Assembly (NCBI GenBank): GCA_018656005.1
Contig: JABHZW010000034.1
Span: forward strand, 2,495 to 66,494
DNA: 64,000 bases
Reading direction: 5' to 3'
Source of the DNA: Candidatus Pseudelusimicrobium marinum
GTDB lineage: Bacteria > Elusimicrobiota > Elusimicrobia > Elusimicrobiales > Elusimicrobiaceae
The stretch's first letter is position 1; every line of letters starts with the position of its first letter. Under the pieces are notes generated by a model. The model had not been told where the DNA came from. It ran no database searches and worked only from the letters and a program-made list of their open reading frames with translations. Below are positions 2,207 through 59,463 of the stretch, in pieces. The translations under genes and the position numbers were made by a program.

Positions 2207-2975
2207 TTTCTATTTTTTCCATTATTTCTAAGACTTCTTTTGTTTCTTTTACATCGTGAACTCTAAAAATTCTTGCACCTCGTAAATACGAGTGACATAC
2301 ACTTGCTAAACTTCCATAAAGTCGTTTTTCTGGTGTTGAACCGAGAAAAGATTTACGAGATGTACCTATTAATATAGTTTTTTTTAATTTTTCAAATGTT
2401 TTTAGATTTTTTAAAAGTTCAAAATTCTGTTCTTTAGTTTTTGCAAAGCCAATACCGGGATCTATAATAATTTTGTCAGTGTCTATCCCAAGTTTTTTGC
2501 AATCTGAAATTTTATTTTTAAAAAAAGCAAAAATTTCTTTGGTAACATTTTTATAATCAGTCATTTGTTGCATTGTTTCTGGTGTGCCACGCATATGCAT
2601 TATTATTACAGATGCATTGGTATCTTTAATAAGTTGCATCATCTTAGCATTTTTTAAACCAGTGATATCATTAACAATATCCGCACCAGCTTCCAATGCT
2701 TTTTTAGCAGTTTCTGGCTTGTAAGTATCGACTGAAATTAATATTTTTGGGAATTTTTTGCGAACTGCTTTTATAACAGGTATTATTTTTTGTTGTTCAA
2801 TATTTTCACTAACAGCTTTCGCGTTAGGACGGCTACTTTCTGCACCGATATCTATAATATCTGCACCATCTTTTATCATTTTTGTTGCTTGTTTTAATGC
2901 TGTTTTGGTGGTGTTATATTGACCGCCATCATAAAAACTATCTGGTGTGATATTTAAAATACCCATTACTTTCAT
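2199..2975 (-). CDS. folP: dihydropteroate synthase
   Basis: Pterin-binding barrel motifs GILNITPDSFYDGG, DIGAESSRP and DPGIGF. Confidence 0.92.
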   Translation of the reverse strand: MKVMGILNITPDSFYDGGQYNTTKTALKQATKMIKDGADIIDIGAESSRPNAKAVSENIEQQKIIPVIKAVRKKFPKILISVDTYKPETAKKALEAGADIVNDITGLKNAKMMQLIKDTNASVIIMHMRGTPETMQQMTDYKNVTKEIFAFFKNKISDCKKLGIDTDKIIIDPGIGFAKTKEQNFELLKNLKTFEKLKKTILIGTSRKSFLGSTPEKRLYGSLASVCHSYLRGARIFRVHDVKETKEVLEIMEKIENA

Positions 2976-2994
2976 TTTTTTACTTCTCCTTTTT

Positions 2995-3104
2995 GGTAAA
3001 TTTTTTCTTTTTTGCTCCTAAAGTAGGGTTCCCTCGCAAGCTTCGGGTTGTTCCAACCTACTAGTCGTCGCAAAGAAATAAAAAATTTCCACAAAAATGC
3101 TCGT
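2995..3104. repeat. nested-hairpin intergenic element (family C) between folE and folP
   Basis: The outer arms GGTAAATTTTTTCTTTTTTGC (2995-3015) and GCAAAGAAATAAAAAATTTCC (3070-3090) pair at about 18 of 21 positions. The core CCTAAAGT-stem...stem-ACTAGTCGTCGCAAAG aligns with the cores at 10068 and 24689, with covarying stems. Confidence 0.7.
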
Positions 3105-3113
3105 AAATTTTTT

Positions 3114-3725
3114 TTATTTGTGTTGAGTGAATTGTAAAAACTCTGCTCTTACTTCTGGTTGTTCAAATACGCCCCTCAAGGCGGAAGTTACCATTATGGC
3201 ATTATTTTTTCTTACGCCTCTAGAGGATATACACATATGCTGAGCTTTGCAAACTACCATCACACCTTGAGGGGCGAGATGTTTCATTAAACTATCTGCA
3301 ATGTCTGCACAAAGTTTTTCTTGAATTTGTAATCGTCTTGCAAAAATATCTGCCATTCTGGCTAATTTGGATATCCCAATGATTTTTTTGTTGGGAATAT
3401 ATCCAATACTTATTGTTCCAAAGAATGGTAAAAAGTGATGTTCGCATGTAGAATAAAATTCCATATCTTTTAAGATAACCATTTCATCGCAAGTACCTTC
3501 TATGAAAGTTTTCAAAACACTTTCTGGTTTTTGTTTATAGCCACTAAACATTTCTTTGTAGCTATTTAACATTCTTTTAGGGGTTTCTTTTAAACCTTCT
3601 CTATTAGGGTTATCGCCGACATATGCTAAAACTTTTTTTAAACTTTGTTCTATTTTATGTTCAGCATTTTGTGAAGCTGTACGCTTAACTTTATTTGCGG
3701 GTTTACGCTTATTATTTTTAGGCAT
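3114..3725 (-). CDS. folE: GTP cyclohydrolase I
   Basis: Motifs GDNPNREGLKETPKR, CEHHFLPFFG and HMCISSRGV. The basic 24-aa N-terminal extension is encoded inside the queE 3' end (76-nt overlap). Confidence 0.92.
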   Translation of the reverse strand: MPKNNKRKPANKVKRTASQNAEHKIEQSLKKVLAYVGDNPNREGLKETPKRMLNSYKEMFSGYKQKPESVLKTFIEGTCDEMVILKDMEFYSTCEHHFLPFFGTISIGYIPNKKIIGISKLARMADIFARRLQIQEKLCADIADSLMKHLAPQGVMVVCKAQHMCISSRGVRKNNAIMVTSALRGVFEQPEVRAEFLQFTQHK

Positions 3726-6601: not shown

Positions 6602-7645
6602 CTATAAAATTAACATAGCATCGCCAAAGGAATAGAACCGATATTTTTCTTCCACAGCTTGGGTATATGCTTTAAATAAAAAGTCTACATCGCCCAAAAA
6701 TGCCGATGTTAGGCATATTGGGGTGCTGTCTGCTAGGTGGAAGTTTGTGATTAAACAATCTATCACTTTAAATTTGTATGGAGGGTATATAAATAGGTTG
6801 GTGTGTTTGCCACCGCTTAAAACCTCTCCCTTTTTTTCTGGGTTTGCGAAACTTTCTAGTGTTCTTACACAAGTTGTACCTGTTGCAAATAATCTGCCAC
6901 CGTTTTGTTTAGTTTTGTTTATCTGTTTTGCTGTGCTTTCAGATATTACCGCAAACTCTGCCAACATTTCGTGATCTTTTGGAGAGGTTTTAAGCGGTTT
7001 AAAAGTTCCAAAACCAACATGAAGTGTAATTTCTAAAATTTTGACACCTTTATCTTCCAACTTTTTTAAAAGTTCTTTTGTAAAGTGGAAACCAGCTGTT
7101 GGTGCTGCAATAGAACCTGTTTGTTTGGCATAAATTGTTTGATAATCTTCTTTATCTGCATCTATTTTAGTATTTTGTCCGCTAGATTTTCTTGCTTTTT
7201 CTATATAAGGGGGAAGTGGCATAGAACCATAGGTATCGGCGTAACTCAAGATATTTTCTGTATTAAATTTCATTAAAAATTCGTTGTTTTCATTTTTTGA
7301 TAGGAATTTGCCTACAATACCACCTTCAAAAAATATTTCTGTGTTTGGTTTGTATCCTGTGGAAAGAGTTTTCCAAATTGTAGCATCTTCTGTTTGCGAA
7401 ACTAGTAAAACTTCTATTTTGCCACCGCTCTTTTTTTTACCTAAAATTTTTGCAGGAAAAACTTTTGTGTTATTTATAACAAGACAATCGCCACTATTAA
7501 AATATTGCAAAATATCTGCAAAAATTTTAGATTCTATTTGCCCACTTTTCCTATTTAGCACCATTAGTTTGGAGCTATCTCTTGGGCAAGCAGGTTTTTT
7601 TGCTATTAAATTTTCTATTTGTAGTTTTGTGAATTTTTCGAACAT
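6602..7645 (-). CDS. queA: S-adenosylmethionine:tRNA ribosyltransferase-isomerase
   Basis: Full-length QueA-like ORF with motifs GSIAAPTAGFHFT, GFGTFKP and TTCVRTLES. Confidence 0.9.
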   Translation of the reverse strand: MFEKFTKLQIENLIAKKPACPRDSSKLMVLNRKSGQIESKIFADILQYFNSGDCLVINNTKVFPAKILGKKKSGGKIEVLLVSQTEDATIWKTLSTGYKPNTEIFFEGGIVGKFLSKNENNEFLMKFNTENILSYADTYGSMPLPPYIEKARKSSGQNTKIDADKEDYQTIYAKQTGSIAAPTAGFHFTKELLKKLEDKGVKILEITLHVGFGTFKPLKTSPKDHEMLAEFAVISESTAKQINKTKQNGGRLFATGTTCVRTLESFANPEKKGEVLSGGKHTNLFIYPPYKFKVIDCLITNFHLADSTPICLTSAFLGDVDFLFKAYTQAVEEKYRFYSFGDAMLIL

Positions 7646-11500: not shown

Positions 11501-11559
11501 GTCATGCTGAACTTGTTTCAGCATCTTTCTATAAGATCCTGAAACAAGTTCAGGATGAC
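11501..11559. repeat. convergent doublet of GTC-AT..AT-C hairpin repeats (family A)
   Basis: Forward unit GTCATGCTGAACTTGTTTCAGCATC (11501-11525) and inverted unit GATCCTGAAACAAGTTCAGGATGAC (11535-11559). The latter is the reverse complement of the unit at 45357-45381. Confidence 0.9.
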
Positions 11560-19990: not shown

Positions 19991-20710
19991 ATGAAAAAAA
20001 TTTTAATATCAATAATTTTAATATCAGTGGCGGGTTTAAGCTACGCGGGTAGCTATGACGATTTTTATAATAATGCTTCGGCAGAAAATTTAAAACCGTT
20101 TACAAAAGATGCATCTGCCTTATTAAATTCTGGCATATTCACAACTGGCAGAATTTTGGGTTGGGGCGGATATCGTTTTGGTGTAAGAGCATCGTATATG
20201 AATAAACCTAGCGACGAAAACACAGCACTTGGCACAGATAAATCTTCATTAACCGTACCTTGGATACAAGCAGACATTGGCTTGCCTTTAAGAATAGATG
20301 GTTTTATAAGAACATCCAACTATCATAAATATGCCATTACTGGTGGAGGTTTCAGATGGGGCGTTTTTAGACCTTCGGATAAACCAGGATCTTTCCAAAT
20401 GTTAATCTCTTTAGCAGGACATAACTCCGTTAACGATTATTTTTCCCTAACAACTTATAATGCAAGTTTAGTGGGTTCGTTTAAGTTTGATACCTTTAAT
20501 CCATATGCAGGTGTCGGTATAGATTACGGCAAATTACAAGTTAGAAATGTGGCGGATAGTAGTTTGATAGGAGTTAGTGAAGAAGCAAGCACACCACACT
20601 ATACATTGGGTGTAAATTTCTTACTTTGGAAGTTTTTCGAATTTGCAATTGCAGGGAACTATGCGAATTATGGGTTAGGTGGCGAAGCATCTTTAGCTTT
20701 CAGGTTTTAG
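19991..20710 (+). CDS. outer-membrane beta-barrel protein (hypothetical)
   Basis: Signal peptide (..AGLSYA), alternating amphipathic strands and a C-terminal ...SLAFRF. Confidence 0.7.
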   Translation: MKKILISIILISVAGLSYAGSYDDFYNNASAENLKPFTKDASALLNSGIFTTGRILGWGGYRFGVRASYMNKPSDENTALGTDKSSLTVPWIQADIGLPLRIDGFIRTSNYHKYAITGGGFRWGVFRPSDKPGSFQMLISLAGHNSVNDYFSLTTYNASLVGSFKFDTFNPYAGVGIDYGKLQVRNVADSSLIGVSEEASTPHYTLGVNFLLWKFFEFAIAGNYANYGLGGEASLAFRF

Positions 20711-20772: not shown

Positions 20773-20935
20773 TTTTAATAATAAGGTGGCTATGTAACAT
20801 TAGCAAAACTAGTGTTATGTAGAAAGTTTAAACACAATAAAACCCCCGATATTTGTTAACACAAATATCACCCCCACAGAGTCTGTGTCCACGACTTTTT
20901 GAAAGGGGGAAAGTAAAAAAAGTTTTATATAGCAT

Positions 20936-20970
20936 AAAAAAAGCGGGCGATATTAATCGCCCGCTTTTTG
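20936..20970 (+). terminator. intrinsic terminator
   Basis: An A-tract, then the stem GCGGGCGAT-ATTAA-TCGCCCGC (20943-20964), then TTTTT. It lies 226 nt beyond the OMP gene stop, after a repeat-rich spacer. Confidence 0.8.
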
Positions 20971-21010
20971 TTTAATAGCACTTTTGGAAAGGGTTTTTTA
21001 TAGTGCAAAA

Positions 21011-21998: not shown

Positions 21999-22073
21999 GT
22001 CATTCCGTGCTTGACACGGAATCCAGGATAAAAAAAGAAAAGACCTAGATTGCGGATCAAGTCCGCAATGACA
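21999..22073. repeat. convergent doublet of family A hairpin repeats
   Basis: Forward unit GTCATTCCGTGCTTGACACGGAATCC (from 21999) and inverted unit AGATTGCGGATCAAGTCCGCAATGACAA (22047-22073). They overlap the spurious 5' extension of the gap ORF. Confidence 0.9.
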
Positions 22074-25893: not shown

Positions 25894-26550
25894 ATGAAAA
25901 ATAAAAAAGGAAATAAAAATTTGTCATTACGAAGAATTTTTTCTTATGTCATTCTCAGCTTGACTGGGAATCTAGTAAAAAATAAGAAAAAATTCTGTGG
26001 TAATCTCGGTTTTACATTAATAGAACTTTTGGTGGTAATACTTATACTAGCAGTACTAGCTAGTATTGCATTACCAAAATATATGGTAGCAAGAGATAGG
26101 GCACACCTTGCTGGTTTAATGACTATTGGTAAAAATGTTAATGATGCTTTGGATAGAATAAGTCTTACTGATGACCAGGCAGATAGCTCAGCTTTAGACA
26201 AATTAGATATAAGTTTTAAGGATTACGAAGGAAGTGATTGTGGTAGCACCTGTAGAATAACAGTTTCAGGTAAAGATTATATGCTTATGCCTGTTCTAAA
26301 TCAGTCTGATGTTCATACTCGGAATTATACTATTTTTTATTCTTATGATAATTCAAATTTTAATAGACTTAATGTCCATACGGAAGAGGGAAAAGTAACT
26401 TGGAATACCACAAATACATATATGCTTTTTTGTTATCAGTATAATGCCTCATATATAGATCCAGATCCAGATAAATGTGAAAGATTAGCAGCAAGTTTTG
26501 GTGCAACTTGTATTGGAGCCACTGGTGCAAGGAGATGTTCTTGGAGCTAA
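25894..26550 (+). CDS. type IV pilin-like protein (prepilin N-terminal cleavage/methylation domain) with a repeat-encoded long leader
   Basis: G|FTLIELLVVILILAVLASIALPKYMVARD, a paralogue of the 41367 gene. The 39-aa leader contains family A repeat DNA in frame. The start is uncertain: ATG 25894, TTG 25921 or TTG 25960. Confidence 0.75.
   Translation: MKNKKGNKNLSLRRIFSYVILSLTGNLVKNKKKFCGNLGFTLIELLVVILILAVLASIALPKYMVARDRAHLAGLMTIGKNVNDALDRISLTDDQADSSALDKLDISFKDYEGSDCGSTCRITVSGKDYMLMPVLNQSDVHTRNYTIFYSYDNSNFNRLNVHTEEGKVTWNTTNTYMLFCYQYNASYIDPDPDKCERLAASFGATCIGATGARRCSWS
25923..26005 (+). repeat. nested family A repeats (one unit inside the loop of another) within the pilin leader
   Basis: The outer unit is GTCATTACG-AAGAATTTTTT...AAAAAATTCT-GTGGTAATC. 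The inner unit is GTCATTCTCAGCTTGACTGGGAATC (25948-25972). Confidence 0.8.
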
Positions 26551-27466: not shown

Positions 27467-28149
27467 ATTACTCGCACTTCCAAATCTTTTCTACTGATTT
27501 TTTTTACATCTGAAACTTTTATAGCATCCGAAATATCATACTTACCAATTGTTGTTCTTCTTAAACTTGTTAAATGTGCATGTGTACCAAGTTTTTTAGC
27601 TAACATTACTGCTAAACTTCGTACATATGTGCCACTGGATACTTCTACTTTAAATTTTAAAATATTTTTAGAAAGTTTTACATTGCTCCAATTAAAAACT
27701 GTAATTTCGCTTTCCTTTTTTTCTATTTTAACACCTTCTCTTGCAAGTTTATACATTTTTTGTCCGCCGACTTTCTTTGCTGAAAATGGGGGGATAATAT
27801 GGTTGAATTTTCCTGTTAAACTTTTAATAACTTCTTGCAATTTATCCTCTGAAATTTGTGGCACAGCATCTTCTTTTAAAACTTCGCCTTCAGCATCCCA
27901 AGTATCTGTTTTAATACCTAATTTTGCCTTTGCTTCATAGGTTTTTGGTAGTGTTAAAAATTCGTTTTGTTTTTTTGTGAAAGAACCTACAAGTAAAATT
28001 AATAATCCTGTTGCCATAGGGTCTAAAGTGCCTGCATGCCCTACTTTTGTTTTTAAAATGCCACGGCTTATGCAAACAACATCGCTAGATGTCCAGCCTT
28101 GTTCTTTATCTACAAGCAATATGCCGTTTTTGGTTTCTATTTGGTCCAT
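27463..28149 (-). CDS. truB: tRNA pseudouridine(55) synthase
   Basis: Motifs KVGHAGTLDPMATGLL and SSGTYVRSL. Confidence 0.92.
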   Translation of the reverse strand: MDQIETKNGILLVDKEQGWTSSDVVCISRGILKTKVGHAGTLDPMATGLLILLVGSFTKKQNEFLTLPKTYEAKAKLGIKTDTWDAEGEVLKEDAVPQISEDKLQEVIKSLTGKFNHIIPPFSAKKVGGQKMYKLAREGVKIEKKESEITVFNWSNVKLSKNILKFKVEVSSGTYVRSLAVMLAKKLGTHAHLTSLRRTTIGKYDISDAIKVSDVKKISRKDLEVRVI

Positions 28150-29126
28150 TTTATTTCTTTGATGAGCTTTTGTTTTATGTCTGCTAATTTTTTGTGCGAA
28201 CTTTTAAAACCAGATGCTCTTTTATGTCCGCCACCGCCAAACTTTACTGCAACTTTACTTACATCAAACTTATCTTTAGACCGCAAATTTGCAGATATTT
28301 CTTTTGCTTCTTCTTTTAAAAACACAGCAACTTCTACACCCGGTATCATAAGGAAGTTATTGACGACACCTTCACTATGATTATTATTTGCTTTTAGCTC
28401 TTTAAAATCTTTTTTTGTTATTTGAGAAATGGCAAGTTTACCGTTTTTTAAAATTTCTAAATTGGTTAAAGCTCTTGCCATTATGCGAGTGCTTTCTAAA
28501 CTTCTTTTTTGATACATCTCGGTATTTATTTTATCTGCATCTGCACCAAGTGTCTTTAATTTGCCTGCAACTTCATATGTAGATGCCGATGTGTTTTGAT
28601 ATAAAAAACGGTTTGTATCTGTAGATATCCCTGTAAATAAATTTGTTGCCATAGATTTTGTTATGCTGGCTTTTATATGCTGAAAAATGCCAAAAACCAT
28701 TTCCGATACCGAGGATATATTAGCATCTATATAATTTACCGTTCCGTAGCGTTCACACACTATATGGTGATCTATATTCAAAATATGTTTGGCATTTTTC
28801 AGCACATTATCCATATTTTTTTTATTGTCCGAAATTCTGTTCTTACTGGAACATTCAAAAGTTATTATAACATCAAATTTTTCTGTTTTAGGAAATTTTG
28901 CTACATTAATTTTTTTAATATTTGGCATAAAAGAAAACTTGTCAGATAATTGGTCGTCTGAAAACAAATAAACTTTTTTCTTTTTGTTTTTTAGATATTC
29001 CGCCATTGCTAATCCTGCACCCAAAGTATCAGGGTCTGGATTTTTGTGTACGGCGATAAAAAAGCTTTTACCAGTTTTTAAAACTTTAGAAATTTGTTTA
29101 ACTTCTTTTGTAAATTTATTTTTCAT
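28137..29126 (-). CDS. nrnA: DHH/DHHA1 phosphoesterase (NrnA-type oligoribonuclease / pAp phosphatase)
   Basis: Motifs HKNPDPDTLG, NIDHH and GGGHKRASG. Confidence 0.82.
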   Translation of the reverse strand: MKNKFTKEVKQISKVLKTGKSFFIAVHKNPDPDTLGAGLAMAEYLKNKKKKVYLFSDDQLSDKFSFMPNIKKINVAKFPKTEKFDVIITFECSSKNRISDNKKNMDNVLKNAKHILNIDHHIVCERYGTVNYIDANISSVSEMVFGIFQHIKASITKSMATNLFTGISTDTNRFLYQNTSASTYEVAGKLKTLGADADKINTEMYQKRSLESTRIMARALTNLEILKNGKLAISQITKKDFKELKANNNHSEGVVNNFLMIPGVEVAVFLKEEAKEISANLRSKDKFDVSKVAVKFGGGGHKRASGFKSSHKKLADIKQKLIKEIKWTK

Positions 29127-29140
29127 TTTACTTCCTGTTT

Positions 29141-29232
29141 GTCATCTTGAGCGTAGTCGAAAGATCTTGGTATTATAGTGTGAACTTAAAGACAAAGATT
29201 CTTCGGCTTCACTTCGTTTCGCTCAGAATGAC
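29141..29232. repeat. convergent doublet of family A hairpin repeats
   Basis: Forward unit GTCATCTTGAGCGTAGTCGAAAGATC (29141-29166) and inverted unit GATTCTTCGGCTTCACTTCGTTTCGCTCAGAATGAC (29197-29232). Confidence 0.85.
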
Positions 29233-34544: not shown

Positions 34545-34677
34545 TTGTCATTGCGAGGGCTGAAAGCCCGTGGCAATCTTAATTTTACAAATTTGTCATT
34601 GCGAGGAGCGATAGCGACGTGGCAATCTTAATTTTATAAATTTGTCATTGCGAGGAGCGATAGCGACGTGGCAATCT
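34545..34677 (+). repeat. three tandem family A units upstream of the GIY-YIG gene
   Basis: Units at 34545-34579, 34593-34628 and 34642-34677 fit TTGTCATTGCGAG-hairpin-CGTGGCAATCT. Units 2 and 3 are identical. The 13-nt spacers are TAATTTTACAAAT and TAATTTTATAAAT. Confidence 0.92.
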
Positions 34678-34688
34678 CGGTGTAAGGT

Positions 34689-34973
34689 ATGAATAAAAAG
34701 TTTTATGTTTATTTTATGACGAACAAAAATAACGAAATCCTATACATAGGAATAACAAATAATTTAGAAAGACGAGTACTAGAACATAGAAACAAATTAA
34801 TAAAAGGTTTTACAGAAAAATATAATTGTACGAAAATAGTACATTACGAAGAGTTTAATTATATAGATAAAGCGATTTTAAGAGAAAAACAAATAAAGAG
34901 TTGGAATAGAAAAAGAAAGAACGATTTGATAAATGAGTATAATTCGAAATGGAATGATTTATATTCAAGCTGA
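34689..34973 (+). CDS. GIY-YIG nuclease-family protein (UPF0213-type, 94 aa)
   Basis: FYVYFMTNKNNEILYIGITNNLERRVLEH fits GIY..YIG..R..E. The gene starts 12 nt after repeat unit 3, and its TGA touches the inverted repeat. Confidence 0.85.
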   Translation: MNKKFYVYFMTNKNNEILYIGITNNLERRVLEHRNKLIKGFTEKYNCTKIVHYEEFNYIDKAILREKQIKSWNRKRKNDLINEYNSKWNDLYSS

Positions 34974-35012
34974 GATTGCCACGAAATTTTTACAAATTTC
35001 TCGCAATGACAA
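34973..35012 (-). repeat. inverted family A unit downstream of the GIY-YIG gene
   Basis: The reverse complement reads TTGTCATTGCGAG-AAATTT-GTAA-AAATTT-CGTGGCAATCT. Degenerate GGCAATGA(CAA) fragments follow at about 35020-35046. Confidence 0.88.
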
Positions 35013-35083
35013 GAAGAGAGGCAATGACAATAAAAAAGGCAATGATTTTAAAATTTAAAATTTAAAATAAAGAGGTAGTTTTT

Positions 35084-39801: not shown

Positions 39802-41310
39802 CATTTTCTTACATTCAGAAATTACCATATCTTTAGTTATAAGTTTCATACATAAAAAGTGTCCTCTAGGACATTTTTTTCCGCCGTGAAGAGCGCAAGG
39901 TCTACATTTTAAATCTTTAACTTCTAACACACTAGAATTTTTGCTGTACGGGAAAAATCCAAGCTCTTTTGTGGTAGGACCAAAAATTGCAATTGTTGGT
40001 ACTTTGTAAGCACATGCAATATGCATAGGACCAGAATCGTTAGTTATAAATAAGTCGAATTTTGGCATTATATTCATTAAGTCTGATAAGCTGGTTTTGC
40101 CAGTCAAATCTATAGGTTTCACATTGGATAAATCTGATATTTTTTTGGCTAGAGCAGAATCGCTTTTACCACCTATTAAAACTGTTTTTGCATTTAAATT
40201 TGTTTCAAGTTCTTCTATAACTTTTGCAAACCTTTCAGGAAACCATCTTTTTGTTAGCCAAACAGAACCGGGGTGAATTGCTACTAGTTTTTTGCCTTCT
40301 TGTTCTTCTAATATTTTAAATTTGCTTGATATTGTTTGCGCCTTTTTCGTGGGATAAATGGAAGGGTCTTTTTCTATAATATTTTGATTTTCATCTGCTA
40401 ATGTTTTTAGTAAGGAAAGGTTTCGCTCAAAGTCGTGCATCATCCACGAAAAAGGCGCTGTTTTTGTATATAAAAATTTACCCGCACTGGAACTAAAACC
40501 AACTCTAACTTTTGTTTTACTTAAATAGGCAATTAAAGCGCTTGTGAAACTTCGGTGGGGGACTATTATTATATTGAACTTTTTCTTTTCTATTTTTTTA
40601 GCAATTTCAAGTAAGCCTTTAATTTTTGAAAGTTTGTGTTTATCGTAAATTATAATTTCGGATACTTCTTGTAATGGTTTGAAAATTTCTTTGGTTTCTG
40701 GTCTGGTAATAACAGAAATTTTAGCTTGTGGGAAAATTTTTGCAGTTTCTTTAATTAATGGTGCAGTTAGCACGGTATCACCGAGGAATGCGGTTTGTAA
40801 AATTGCTATTTTGGATATTTTCTTGCCCGATGTTTTCTTTTGAGTGTATTTCCAATCTTCAAATTCAAGCTCTTTAAATTTTGGTTCTATATTAAATTTT
40901 TCTAAAGCATTTAAATATTTTTCTAGTGAATGCTTTTCAAGTACTGGGCTTGGCAAACGAAAGTTTACAAACAATTTTCGCGCAAAAGAATTTTTCTTAT
41001 AAATAGAAATATTTGGAATTTTAGTAAAACTTCTAATCAAAAAACTTCTTAAATTATTATGTAAATCTAACAAATACGAAAAATTCTTTTGCTTTATTAA
41101 ACTTACAGTTTCAAATAAATTTGTGAAGGTAATAATTTCATCTATATAAGGATTACTTTGCAAAGCTTCTTTAAATTGCGGTTTCACTAATAATGCTACG
41201 AAAGCATCGGGATATTTTTCCTTTATATTCTTATATATGGGAGCTGTTAAAACGATATCTCCCAAAGACGACATTCTTATTACAAGAAATTTTTTGTCAG
41301 TTGTTTCCAT
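39790..41310 (-). CDS. family 9 glycosyltransferase (LPS heptosyltransferase-like) with a duplicated N-terminal half-domain
   Basis: Two copies of the GT9 N-terminal motif (FLVIRMSSLGDIVLTAP and IAILQTAFLGDTVLTAP) precede one C-terminal half (TNDSGPMHIA). Total length is 506 aa. Confidence 0.8.
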   Translation of the reverse strand: METTDKKFLVIRMSSLGDIVLTAPIYKNIKEKYPDAFVALLVKPQFKEALQSNPYIDEIITFTNLFETVSLIKQKNFSYLLDLHNNLRSFLIRSFTKIPNISIYKKNSFARKLFVNFRLPSPVLEKHSLEKYLNALEKFNIEPKFKELEFEDWKYTQKKTSGKKISKIAILQTAFLGDTVLTAPLIKETAKIFPQAKISVITRPETKEIFKPLQEVSEIIIYDKHKLSKIKGLLEIAKKIEKKKFNIIIVPHRSFTSALIAYLSKTKVRVGFSSSAGKFLYTKTAPFSWMMHDFERNLSLLKTLADENQNIIEKDPSIYPTKKAQTISSKFKILEEQEGKKLVAIHPGSVWLTKRWFPERFAKVIEELETNLNAKTVLIGGKSDSALAKKISDLSNVKPIDLTGKTSLSDLMNIMPKFDLFITNDSGPMHIACAYKVPTIAIFGPTTKELGFFPYSKNSSVLEVKDLKCRPCALHGGKKCPRGHFLCMKLITKDMVISECKKMLSS

Positions 41311-41900: not shown

Positions 41901-41937
41901 GTCATTCTCGCACACTAGTGCGGGAATCCAGTATAAA
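41901..41937 (+). repeat. single family A hairpin unit
   Basis: GTCATTCTCGCACACTAGTGCGGGAATCCAGTATAAA differs at one position from the copy at 59427-59463. Confidence 0.9.
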
Positions 41938-45356: not shown

Positions 45357-45417
45357 GTCATCCTGAACTTGTTTCAGGATCTTATAGTAAGATTGCGGAC
45401 CAAGCCCGCAATGACAA
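45357..45417. repeat. convergent doublet of family A hairpin repeats
   Basis: Forward unit GTCATCCTGAACTTGTTTCAGGATC (45357-45381) and inverted unit AGATTGCGGACCAAGCCCGCAATGACAA (45390-45417). Confidence 0.9.
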
Positions 45418-59426: not shown

Positions 59427-59463
59427 GTCATTCTCGCACATTAGTGCGGGAATCCAGTATAAA
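59427..59463 (+). repeat. single family A hairpin unit between the giant gene and the PorV-like gene
   Basis: GTCATTCTCGCACATTAGTGCGGGAATCCAGTATAAA matches 41901-41937 at 36 of 37 positions. Confidence 0.9.

Follow-up and report, generated by a model that had tools for sequence, protein, structure and literature searches.

We analysed a 64,000-nt stretch of the Candidatus Pseudelusimicrobium marinum genome (GenBank assembly GCA_018656005.1, contig JABHZW010000034.1, positions 2,495 to 66,494; hereafter the window) that carries a dispersed family of short hairpins, among them a doublet at 11501-11559. The units share the plan T-GTC-AT[stem]-loop-[stem]AT-C-Y. We consider it likely that they are TGTC-tagged repetitive extragenic palindromic (REP) elements and, at the same time, Ssn-related motifs (SRMs), hairpins that are recognised as single-stranded DNA (ssDNA) by Ssn nucleases. 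The window contains an ssn gene bracketed by such hairpins. The family was described in 2013 and 2025 and is not a novel one; the units found here are AT-rich members of the superfamily that are missed by the operational SRM search string.

Two published studies bear on these units. Di Nocera, De Gregorio and Rocco (2013, BMC Genomics; PMC3733652) described a superfamily of CGTC-tagged REPs in which the tag is often TGTC. Their stems are 8-9 bp long and open with A-T at positions 1-2, their loops measure 4-5 nt and a short unpaired 3' tail has the consensus CCA. Dimers are mostly head-to-head (HH; tags outside), tail-to-tail (TT) dimers are rare, and no enzyme was known for these elements in 2013 (PMC3733652). 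Chenal et al. (2025, Nat Commun; PMC11893778) reported that the Neisseria repeat NTS, CGTCATTCCCGCGMAVGCGGGAATCYRG, is bound by SsnA, a 94-aa GIY-YIG protein, as ssDNA only. SsnA cuts a few bases upstream of the motif. The C after the palindrome matters most for binding, the three bases before it matter most for cutting, and the identity of the loop is dispensable. The N. meningitidis enzyme does not bind RNA, and its activity was abolished when the palindrome was altered with the hairpin kept. Such motifs also lie beside Ssn homologues across phyla, and in Neisseria the role of NTS and Ssn is to limit recombination of incoming transforming ssDNA (all PMC11893778).

The ssn gene of the window encodes a protein of 94 aa that consists of a GIY-YIG domain alone; the PF01541 match spans residues 4-77. 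A tblastn search with this protein against a 7.3-Gb plasmid collection returned two N. gonorrhoeae chromosomes filed as plasmids (4e-19). The N. gonorrhoeae SsnA orthologue is also 94 aa long and lies inside a cluster of 16 NTS copies. BLASTP aligned the two proteins without gaps at 48% identity (E 6e-29), which is below the E < 1e-10 used to define homologues in PMC11893778. The catalytic residues Y6, Y17 and E64 (N. meningitidis numbering) correspond to Y8, Y19 and E66 in the window protein. All NCBIfam matches of the protein were sub-threshold, and the nearest PDB sequence was a UPF0213 protein (E 0.0065). This is the only such small GIY-YIG gene that we found in the genome. Hairpins bracket it on both sides, with three forward units upstream and one inverted unit downstream. 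The last upstream unit (34644-34676) ends 12 nt before the ssn start codon, and its tail CTCGGTGTAAGGT includes a likely ribosome-binding site. Judged from its sequence, the region 34547-35010 is a canonical cassette of the form hairpin(s), ssn, inverted hairpin. An earlier reading of the DNA letters, made without database searches (the sequence-only reading), had listed units around 34689-34973 and missed their link to the GIY-YIG gene.

The window holds 16 full units (Table 1), in agreement with the at least 16 that the sequence-only reading had counted and with every position that it had listed, as well as truncated remnants at ~35017-35045. Four tag-outward inverted pairs are present with spacers of 9, 24, 30 and 9 nt in coordinate order; these are the four forward-plus-inverted doublets that it had described. 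It had also placed all copies between genes apart from one in a pilin leader, and this is true of every window copy: all lie between open reading frames (ORFs), with a nested pair in the pilin leader as the exception. The first unit of the doublet at 11501-11559 reads GTC-ATGCTGAA-CTTGT-TTCAGCAT-C (11501-11525). After a 9-nt spacer, positions 11535-11559 are the reverse complement of GTC-ATCCTGAA-CTTGT-TTCAGGAT-C. This near-homodimer can be folded as a single 28-bp imperfect hairpin (-25 kcal/mol as ssDNA, z = -9); heterodimer doublets give two separate hairpins on folding. A structured spacer between folE and folP (window 2960-3125) has no GTCAT tag and falls outside the TGTC-hairpin family.

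We searched the 1.2-Mb genome with a strict scan that required GTCAT, a closing ATC, at least 5 outer pairs and a folded hairpin. The scan gave 113 matches, or 110 after 3 false ones were discarded, compared with 3-6 in shuffled sequence. A looser first scan that allowed long loops did no better than shuffled sequence (134 matches vs 101-125) and was replaced by the strict one. Confinement of the units to the window had been named beforehand as a finding that would speak against selection on the hairpin. The genome-wide count of 110, and counts of up to more than 100 in relatives, show that the units are not so confined.

The 110 units fall into four subtypes. Type A (60 units) is 25 nt long with the loop CTTGW or TTTAK. 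Type B (33 units, 26 of them distinct) has the form GTCATTGCGAGG-[variable inner hairpin]-CGTGGCAATC, type C (8 units) the form GTCATCTTGAGCG...GAAGTCGAAAGATC and type D (9 units) the form GTCATTCTCGCAC-ACTA-GTGCGGGAATC. In types A and D the stems measure 8-10 bp and the loops 3-5 nt. Types B and C are variants whose stems are longer and bulged but still start from the AT base; in type B the pair beside the fixed base co-varies between G-C and A-T, and the distal palindrome differs in almost every copy. The ACTA-loop units and the ATTGCGAGG...CGTGGCAAT units, which the sequence-only reading had taken for stem variants of one unit, are members of distinct subtypes. CCAG tails are found on type D and on the doublets with 24-nt spacers. 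Across the genome there are 23 real HH dimers and 4 TT dimers, and heterodimers occur. Inverted doublets recur at several loci as whole units with fixed spacing.

GTC and the 3' C were fixed in our search patterns, and their invariance follows from the search design; what speaks for their conservation is the excess of matches over chance, together with the neighbouring positions that were left free. The base before GTC is T in 105/109 units. Following the closing C, a pyrimidine is seen in 109/109 units (C in 18, T in 91). The plan given by the sequence-only reading, GTC-AT...AT-C, thus stands at its core, and its flanks become TGTC on the 5' side and C-pyrimidine on the 3' side. A search on flanks alone (TGTCAT-N17-ATCY) gave 62 matches at that spacing, compared with about 7 expected per spacing. 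Of these 25-mers, 60/62 are fully paired over the six variable stem positions and represent 16 distinct sequences; the other 2/62 resemble chance matches. Two sequences make up 31 of the 60 type-A copies. Among 20 distinct rows defined by flanks only, 88% of cells are paired and 6/6 variable pairs have changed on both sides. The covariation score was not reached in any of 500 shuffles (0/500), and pairing dropped to 23-43% when the partner was slid by 1-3 columns. The sequence-only reading had argued that the hairpin is under constraint, with both arms changing together. The stems do co-vary, the two basal A-T pairs are fixed, and the T before GTC and the pyrimidine after the closing C are nearly invariant. 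We conclude that the hairpin is constrained, and that its oriented, unpaired flanks are constrained likewise.

We next compared loci with ssn genes across bacteria. The set comprised 80 Ssn homologues (51-89% identity) from Patescibacteria, Bacteroidota, Bacillota, Pseudomonadota, Chloroflexota, Nitrospirota and others. A GTC-hairpin-C unit lies within 250 bp of the gene in 68/80 homologues and on both sides in 42/80. The typical layout has a forward unit ~50 nt upstream and an inverted unit 10-25 nt downstream. The two sides carry the same subtype in 34/39 classifiable loci. When subtypes were mapped onto the Ssn tree, 15 changes were needed compared with 37 in shuffles (0/200 as low). This result shows clustering and is not proof of co-evolution, because close relatives share labels. 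Type-A 25-mers that are identical or nearly so, such as GTCATCCTGAACTTGTTTCAGGATC, flank Ssn genes at six loci (L045, L058, L044, L048, L030 and L077) in metagenome-assembled genomes (MAGs) of Syntrophales, Nitrospirota, Parcubacteria, Moraniibacteriota, WOR-3 and Endomicrobiaceae. The presence of identical 25-mers beside Ssn genes in distant phyla suggests that enzyme-hairpin pairs may have spread horizontally.

A sister species in the same genus (G001; genes ~80% identical) carries four Ssn paralogues, which are flanked by types B, B, A and C (Table 1). Together with the clustering described above, this arrangement indicates that each hairpin subtype is, as far as sequence can tell, paired with its own Ssn lineage. 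We also scanned 60 genomes of the same family with a covariance model of type A, a check that the sequence-only reading had proposed. The model found 64-65 units in the present genome and from 0 to >100 in the family genomes, of which 23 were positive. Ssn is present in 10/12 family genomes with at least 20 type-A matches and in 8/48 of the remaining ones. Several G001 contigs end exactly at doublets (the end of C4 at 24172, the starts of C52 and C150). Contigs that break at doublets indicate that the repeats break short-read assembly, and copy numbers from MAGs are therefore lower bounds.

Comparison with G001 revealed turnover of both doublets and cassettes. G001 lacks the doublet of 45357-45415 in its orthologous scpB-glgA spacer. 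Its secF spacer has units unlike those found here, and its contigs break at that point. In G001 the 89%-identical ssn cassette is found between carA and carB, whereas here its place is between ftsZ and the T2SSE ATPase gene; the relocated cassettes share the immediate flanks TTTTGTCATTGCGAGG...GGCAATCTCGGTGTAAG-ATG. At the ftsZ-T2SSE site G001 has a 53%-identical Ssn instead, though its neighbouring genes share 72-80% DNA identity with those here. This difference looks like replacement or exchange of a cassette at a fixed site. In the present genome the carA-carB spacer (G000:C37:15022-15690) is occupied by another small ORF and by palindromes rich in G/C, for example CCCCCTTTACGAAAGGGGG; it looks like a hot spot for insertions. 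Contigs of the same species from other assemblies are 99.8-100% identical and contain the same cassette and the same doublets. Presence and absence of doublets, which the sequence-only reading had proposed to compare between strains, was thus observed between species, and the two doublets checked showed no polymorphism among strains.

The units could instead act at the RNA level, as stem-loops in 3' untranslated regions or between cistrons that stabilise or terminate transcripts and whose stems are kept by selection on RNA folding. Many REPs have been argued to be transcribed (PMC3733652), and the placement of our units is compatible with such a role. Most of them follow a gene, where the spacer is tandem or convergent. 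Single units in tandem spacers are oriented in the sense direction in 24 cases and antisense in 5. Stem pairs other than Watson-Crick are few in this genome, and those that occur are T-G as read on the tagged strand. Doublets, however, show no orientation bias (15 vs 15). The tag is on the G-rich strand in 34 cases vs 13, and the orientation biases support no conclusion because transcription and GC skew are confounded and the units are clustered; replication direction is confounded with the sense bias in the same way. The mismatch asymmetry is uninformative, since cases are few and C-A is as frequent as G-T in a relative (G016). At 11501-11559 no U-run follows the hairpin on the transcribed strand, and the sole terminator-like match is on the non-transcribed strand. 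Rfam models gave no match in the window at gathering thresholds, and N. meningitidis SsnA does not bind RNA, as noted above. RNA stability also leaves the conserved, oriented and unpaired TGTC and C-Y flanks unexplained. Recognition by a protein would fit such flanks better, and we judge an RNA-level role improbable.

Mobilisation by a Y1 transposase, as in classical REPs, is far less probable still. Classical REP elements, including bacterial interspersed mosaic elements (BIMEs) and the REP doublets forming hairpins called REPINs, have a GTAG tag and a REP-associated tyrosine transposase (RAYT), a Y1 (HUH) enzyme (Nunvar 2010; Bertels and Rainey 2011; Ton-Hoang 2012; as cited in PMC11893778). 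The units here resemble elements mobilised by a RAYT (an IS200/IS605-like Y1 transposase) in that inverted doublets recur whole at fixed spacing and are patchily distributed among relatives, and the sequence-only reading had likened the doublets to REPINs. The likeness in doublet layout stands, but these units do not belong to the RAYT/REPIN system. PF01797 (Y1 transposase/RAYT) had 0 matches in the 92.75%-complete genome compared with matches in 6/14 control genomes. The tag is TGTC and not GTAG, and the repeat-flanked gene encodes a GIY-YIG nuclease, both here and in 68/80 homologous loci. We therefore see almost no room for RAYT-driven elements.

Several results weigh against the reading of the units as Ssn-recognised SRMs. 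The published SRM string, HGTCWYN(0-2)YYVSBRHN(0-5)WNVSBRGN(0-2)RNCYNB, matched the whole genome 2 times compared with a mean of 0.7 in 20 dinucleotide shuffles, and most units are not SRMs by that operational definition. The string recovered the N. gonorrhoeae and Azospirillum copies that served as positive controls. It misses our units because it demands G+C-rich stems, and we do not hold its failure against kinship, given that it recovers the Neisseria and Azospirillum copies. The enzyme side raises a second difficulty. The only Ssn found here belongs to the type-B lineage, which leaves the type-A doublets without a cognate enzyme in the assembly; we found no type-A gene, further Ssn gene or remnant in it besides the type-B gene. 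One enzyme for four stem classes is not expected, because a change of palindrome abolished SsnA activity. In G016, a genome of the same family that is 98% complete, the covariance model counts >100 type-A units, yet the search for Ssn homologues at E <= 1e-10 came back empty. Units might thus persist after the enzyme is gone; otherwise, assembly and binning would have to drop the cassette regularly. Evidence for movement is also incomplete. The two doublets checked were not polymorphic among strains that are 99.8-100% identical. No clean empty site for the ssn cassette was found, and the carA-carB spacer of this genome is filled with other material. Inspection by eye of the doublet flanks gave no consistent direct repeat that would indicate target-site duplication, only T-rich 5' flanks. 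Exact element boundaries are out of reach, because intergenic DNA is too diverged between congeners.

Three accounts can be given of the type-A doublets here: they would be left over from a lost enzyme, served by an unassembled copy, or cross-recognised by the type-B enzyme. The first of these can be taken further, with the doublets as inert relics that spread in an ancestor with a since-lost type-A Ssn and survive only for being recent and doing no harm; their perfect stems would reflect copying from a few masters and not selection. This is a live sub-hypothesis that is compatible with Ssn recognition of the family, and we regard it as a possible but doubtful account. It would explain the lack of a type-A Ssn or remnant in the assembly, the reduction of 60 units to 16 distinct sequences with two accounting for 31 copies, the many units of G016, and strains without turnover. 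On the other hand, 60/60 real 25-mers are perfectly paired, with zero broken stems, and gain or loss has occurred since the split from the congener. The same stems recur beside Ssn genes in distant phyla. At 92.75% completeness the MAG does not prove that a type-A Ssn is absent, since short cassettes with repeats on both sides are prone to poor assembly and often sit on very short contigs. The type-A ssn of the congener lies on a 2.8-kb contig, and the ssn of the present species is often on contigs of <2 kb in other assemblies.

If the units are Ssn sites, the published work on SsnA (PMC11893778) suggests how they might function. Ssn would bind the folded, tagged strand as ssDNA and nick it a few bases 5' of the tag. 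The fixed parts of the site would be the unpaired T-GTC, the two basal A-T pairs of the stem, and the C and pyrimidine that follow it; these coincide with the positions that matter most for cutting and binding by N. meningitidis SsnA. The rest of the stem would need only to pair, and the loop would tolerate extra sequence. Such rules would account for the compensatory changes, for the hypervariable cores of type B and for the unit nested in the loop of 25923-26005. Gene-less units and doublets may be miniature derivatives of the cassette that spread with, or by, the cognate enzyme, and we infer that Ssn cleavage might be what spreads them. A larger picture is more speculative. The hairpin-ssn-hairpin cassettes and gene-less doublets might be tiny ssDNA mobile elements in which a 94-aa nuclease takes the role of RAYT or TnpA. 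Several pairs of enzyme and hairpin, each with its own specificity (types A-D), would then compete inside one small genome, orphan doublets such as 11501-11559 would mark a lost or cross-served enzyme, and repeated in-frame insertion into prepilin leaders would point to a target that is tolerated or preferred. We put this picture forward tentatively, as one that may well prove wrong.

The copies in prepilin leaders form a group of their own. About 28 type IV pilin-like genes in the genome share the leader M(N/K)KK(A/G)|FTLIELL. In 7 of these ~28 genes the leader contains an in-frame hairpin unit, in every case immediately ahead of the G|F cleavage site (Table 1). The type-B pilin inserts end in AATCTCGG(T/G), which gives a Gly codon, and the same tail precedes the ssn start codon. 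The pilin leader could be a tolerated landing site or a preferred target, or the copies could reflect recombination among pilin paralogues.

Table 1. Hairpin units and ssn in the window, pilin-leader units across the genome, and Ssn paralogues of the sister species G001. Positions are those of the window unless a contig is given.
Feature	Position	Strand	Remarks
Type-A unit GTCATGCTGAACTTGTTTCAGCATC	11501-11525	+	Left half of tag-outward (HH) doublet; 8-bp stem, 5-nt loop CTTGT
Type-A unit GTCATCCTGAACTTGTTTCAGGATC	11535-11559	-	Right half of the same doublet; 9-nt spacer
Type-A unit, stem ATTCCGTG, tail CCAGG	21999-22023	+	Left half of doublet with 24-nt spacer
Type-A unit, stem ATTGCGGA	22048-22072	-	Right half of doublet with 24-nt spacer
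Type-B-like outer unit GTCATTACGAAG...CTGTGGTAATC	25923-26005	+	In frame within prepilin leader
Type-A unit	25948-25972	+	Nested in the loop of outer unit 25923-26005
Short type-C unit GTCATCTTGAGCGTAGTCGAAAGATC	29141-29166	+	Left half of doublet with 30-nt spacer; weak hairpin
Type-C unit GTCATTCTGAGCGAAACGAAGTGAAGCCGAAGAATC	29197-29232	-	Right half of doublet with 30-nt spacer
Type-B units, three in tandem	34547-34578, 34595-34627, 34644-34676	+	Upstream of ssn
ssn, gene for a single-domain GIY-YIG nuclease of 94 aa that is homologous to Neisseria SsnA	34689-34973	+	Pfam PF01541, 1.2e-17
Inverted type-B unit	34974-35010	-	Begins directly after ssn stop; then truncated GCAATGAC remnants to ~35045
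Type-D unit GTCATTCTCGCACACTAGTGCGGGAATC with tail CAG	41901-41928	+	Subtype nearest the Neisseria NTS consensus
Type-A unit, stem ATCCTGAA	45357-45381	+	Left half of heterodimer with 9-nt spacer
Type-A unit, stem ATTGCGGG	45391-45415	-	Right half of that heterodimer
Type-D unit GTCATTCTCGCACATTAGTGCGGGAATC with tail CAG	59427-59454	+	
Pilin-leader unit	25894-26010 (region holding unit 25923-26005)		
Pilin-leader units	G000:C45 ~39983-40040, ~77795-77882		
Pilin-leader unit	C28 ~6770-6892		
Pilin-leader unit	C30 ~28132-28191		
Pilin-leader units	C17 ~20429-20453, ~20916-20974		
G001 Ssn	C40		89% identical to window ssn; type-B flanks
G001 Ssn (L105)	C35:4563-4838		53% identical; type B upstream
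G001 Ssn	C119:2394-2663		53% identical; GTCATCCTGAACTTGTTTCAGGATC, the unit found at 11535 and 45357, on both sides
G001 Ssn	C3		60% identical; type-C flanks

These results extend the Ssn/SRM system to an Elusimicrobiaceae-like MAG of gut or environmental origin. Because the published SRM string under-counts AT-rich versions, the family probably reaches further than has been reported. Four co-resident subtypes, paralogue-specific pairing in the congener and clustering on the Ssn tree together provide a natural set of candidate enzyme-site pairs. Such pairs would be useful for mapping Ssn specificity, which bears on the stated biotechnological use of these enzymes in site-specific cutting of ssDNA. 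Relocation of the 89%-identical cassette and replacement by a 53%-identical paralogue at the ftsZ site bear on whether ssn is a mobile element or a domesticated gene. What is new here is the host lineage, the AT-rich units that escape the string, the co-residence of four subtypes, the relocation and replacement of cassettes, and the in-frame copies in prepilin leaders.

We compared the units to known repeat systems. They share with REP/BIME and REPIN-RAYT elements a short hairpin with an unpaired tag, the inverted doublet as a recurring unit and a single-copy enzyme gene flanked by repeats; recognition of the hairpin as ssDNA would be a further likeness, which here comes from literature analogy. 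Neither the GTAG tag nor a Y1 transposase was found in the 92.75%-complete genome, which separates the two systems.

The CGTC/TGTC REPs are a closer match. Common features include the unpaired tag (TGTC here), A-T at stem positions 1-2, stems of 8-9 bp with loops of 4-5 nt (types A and D), and probably a short 3' tail. In both, HH dimers dominate and are often heterodimers, copies lie in tandem and convergent spacers, and some are intragenic. In the present genome, which is ~90% coding, 98/110 units lie outside crude ORFs, and divergent spacers hold 4/90 units although they make up 21% of spacer length. Types B and C, in contrast, have long, bulged or nested stems that go beyond the four families of PMC3733652, and the tail is C-T or C-C-A-G here and not uniformly CCA. 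That study has neither this phylum in its list nor a dedicated enzyme.

The present system differs from the published Ssn/SRM system in that its stems are AT-rich and four subtypes stand beside the single enzyme detected. The host is a small-genome Elusimicrobiaceae-like MAG and not a member of Pseudomonadota, and 'Elusimicrobi' is absent from the main text of PMC11893778. Cleavage activity is known from Neisseria, as is the link to transformation, and either would be putative here. The two nevertheless share a 94-aa protein with only a GIY-YIG domain, the three catalytic residues that were mutated in Neisseria, and the layout of hairpin, ssn and inverted hairpin. They also share the plan (C/T)GTC-AT...AT-C-Y-R-G and many gene-less, mainly intergenic copies, and the NTS consensus CGTCATTCCCGCGMAVGCGGGAATCYRG is close to type D, TGTCATTCTCGCAC-ACTA-GTGCGGGAATCCAG.

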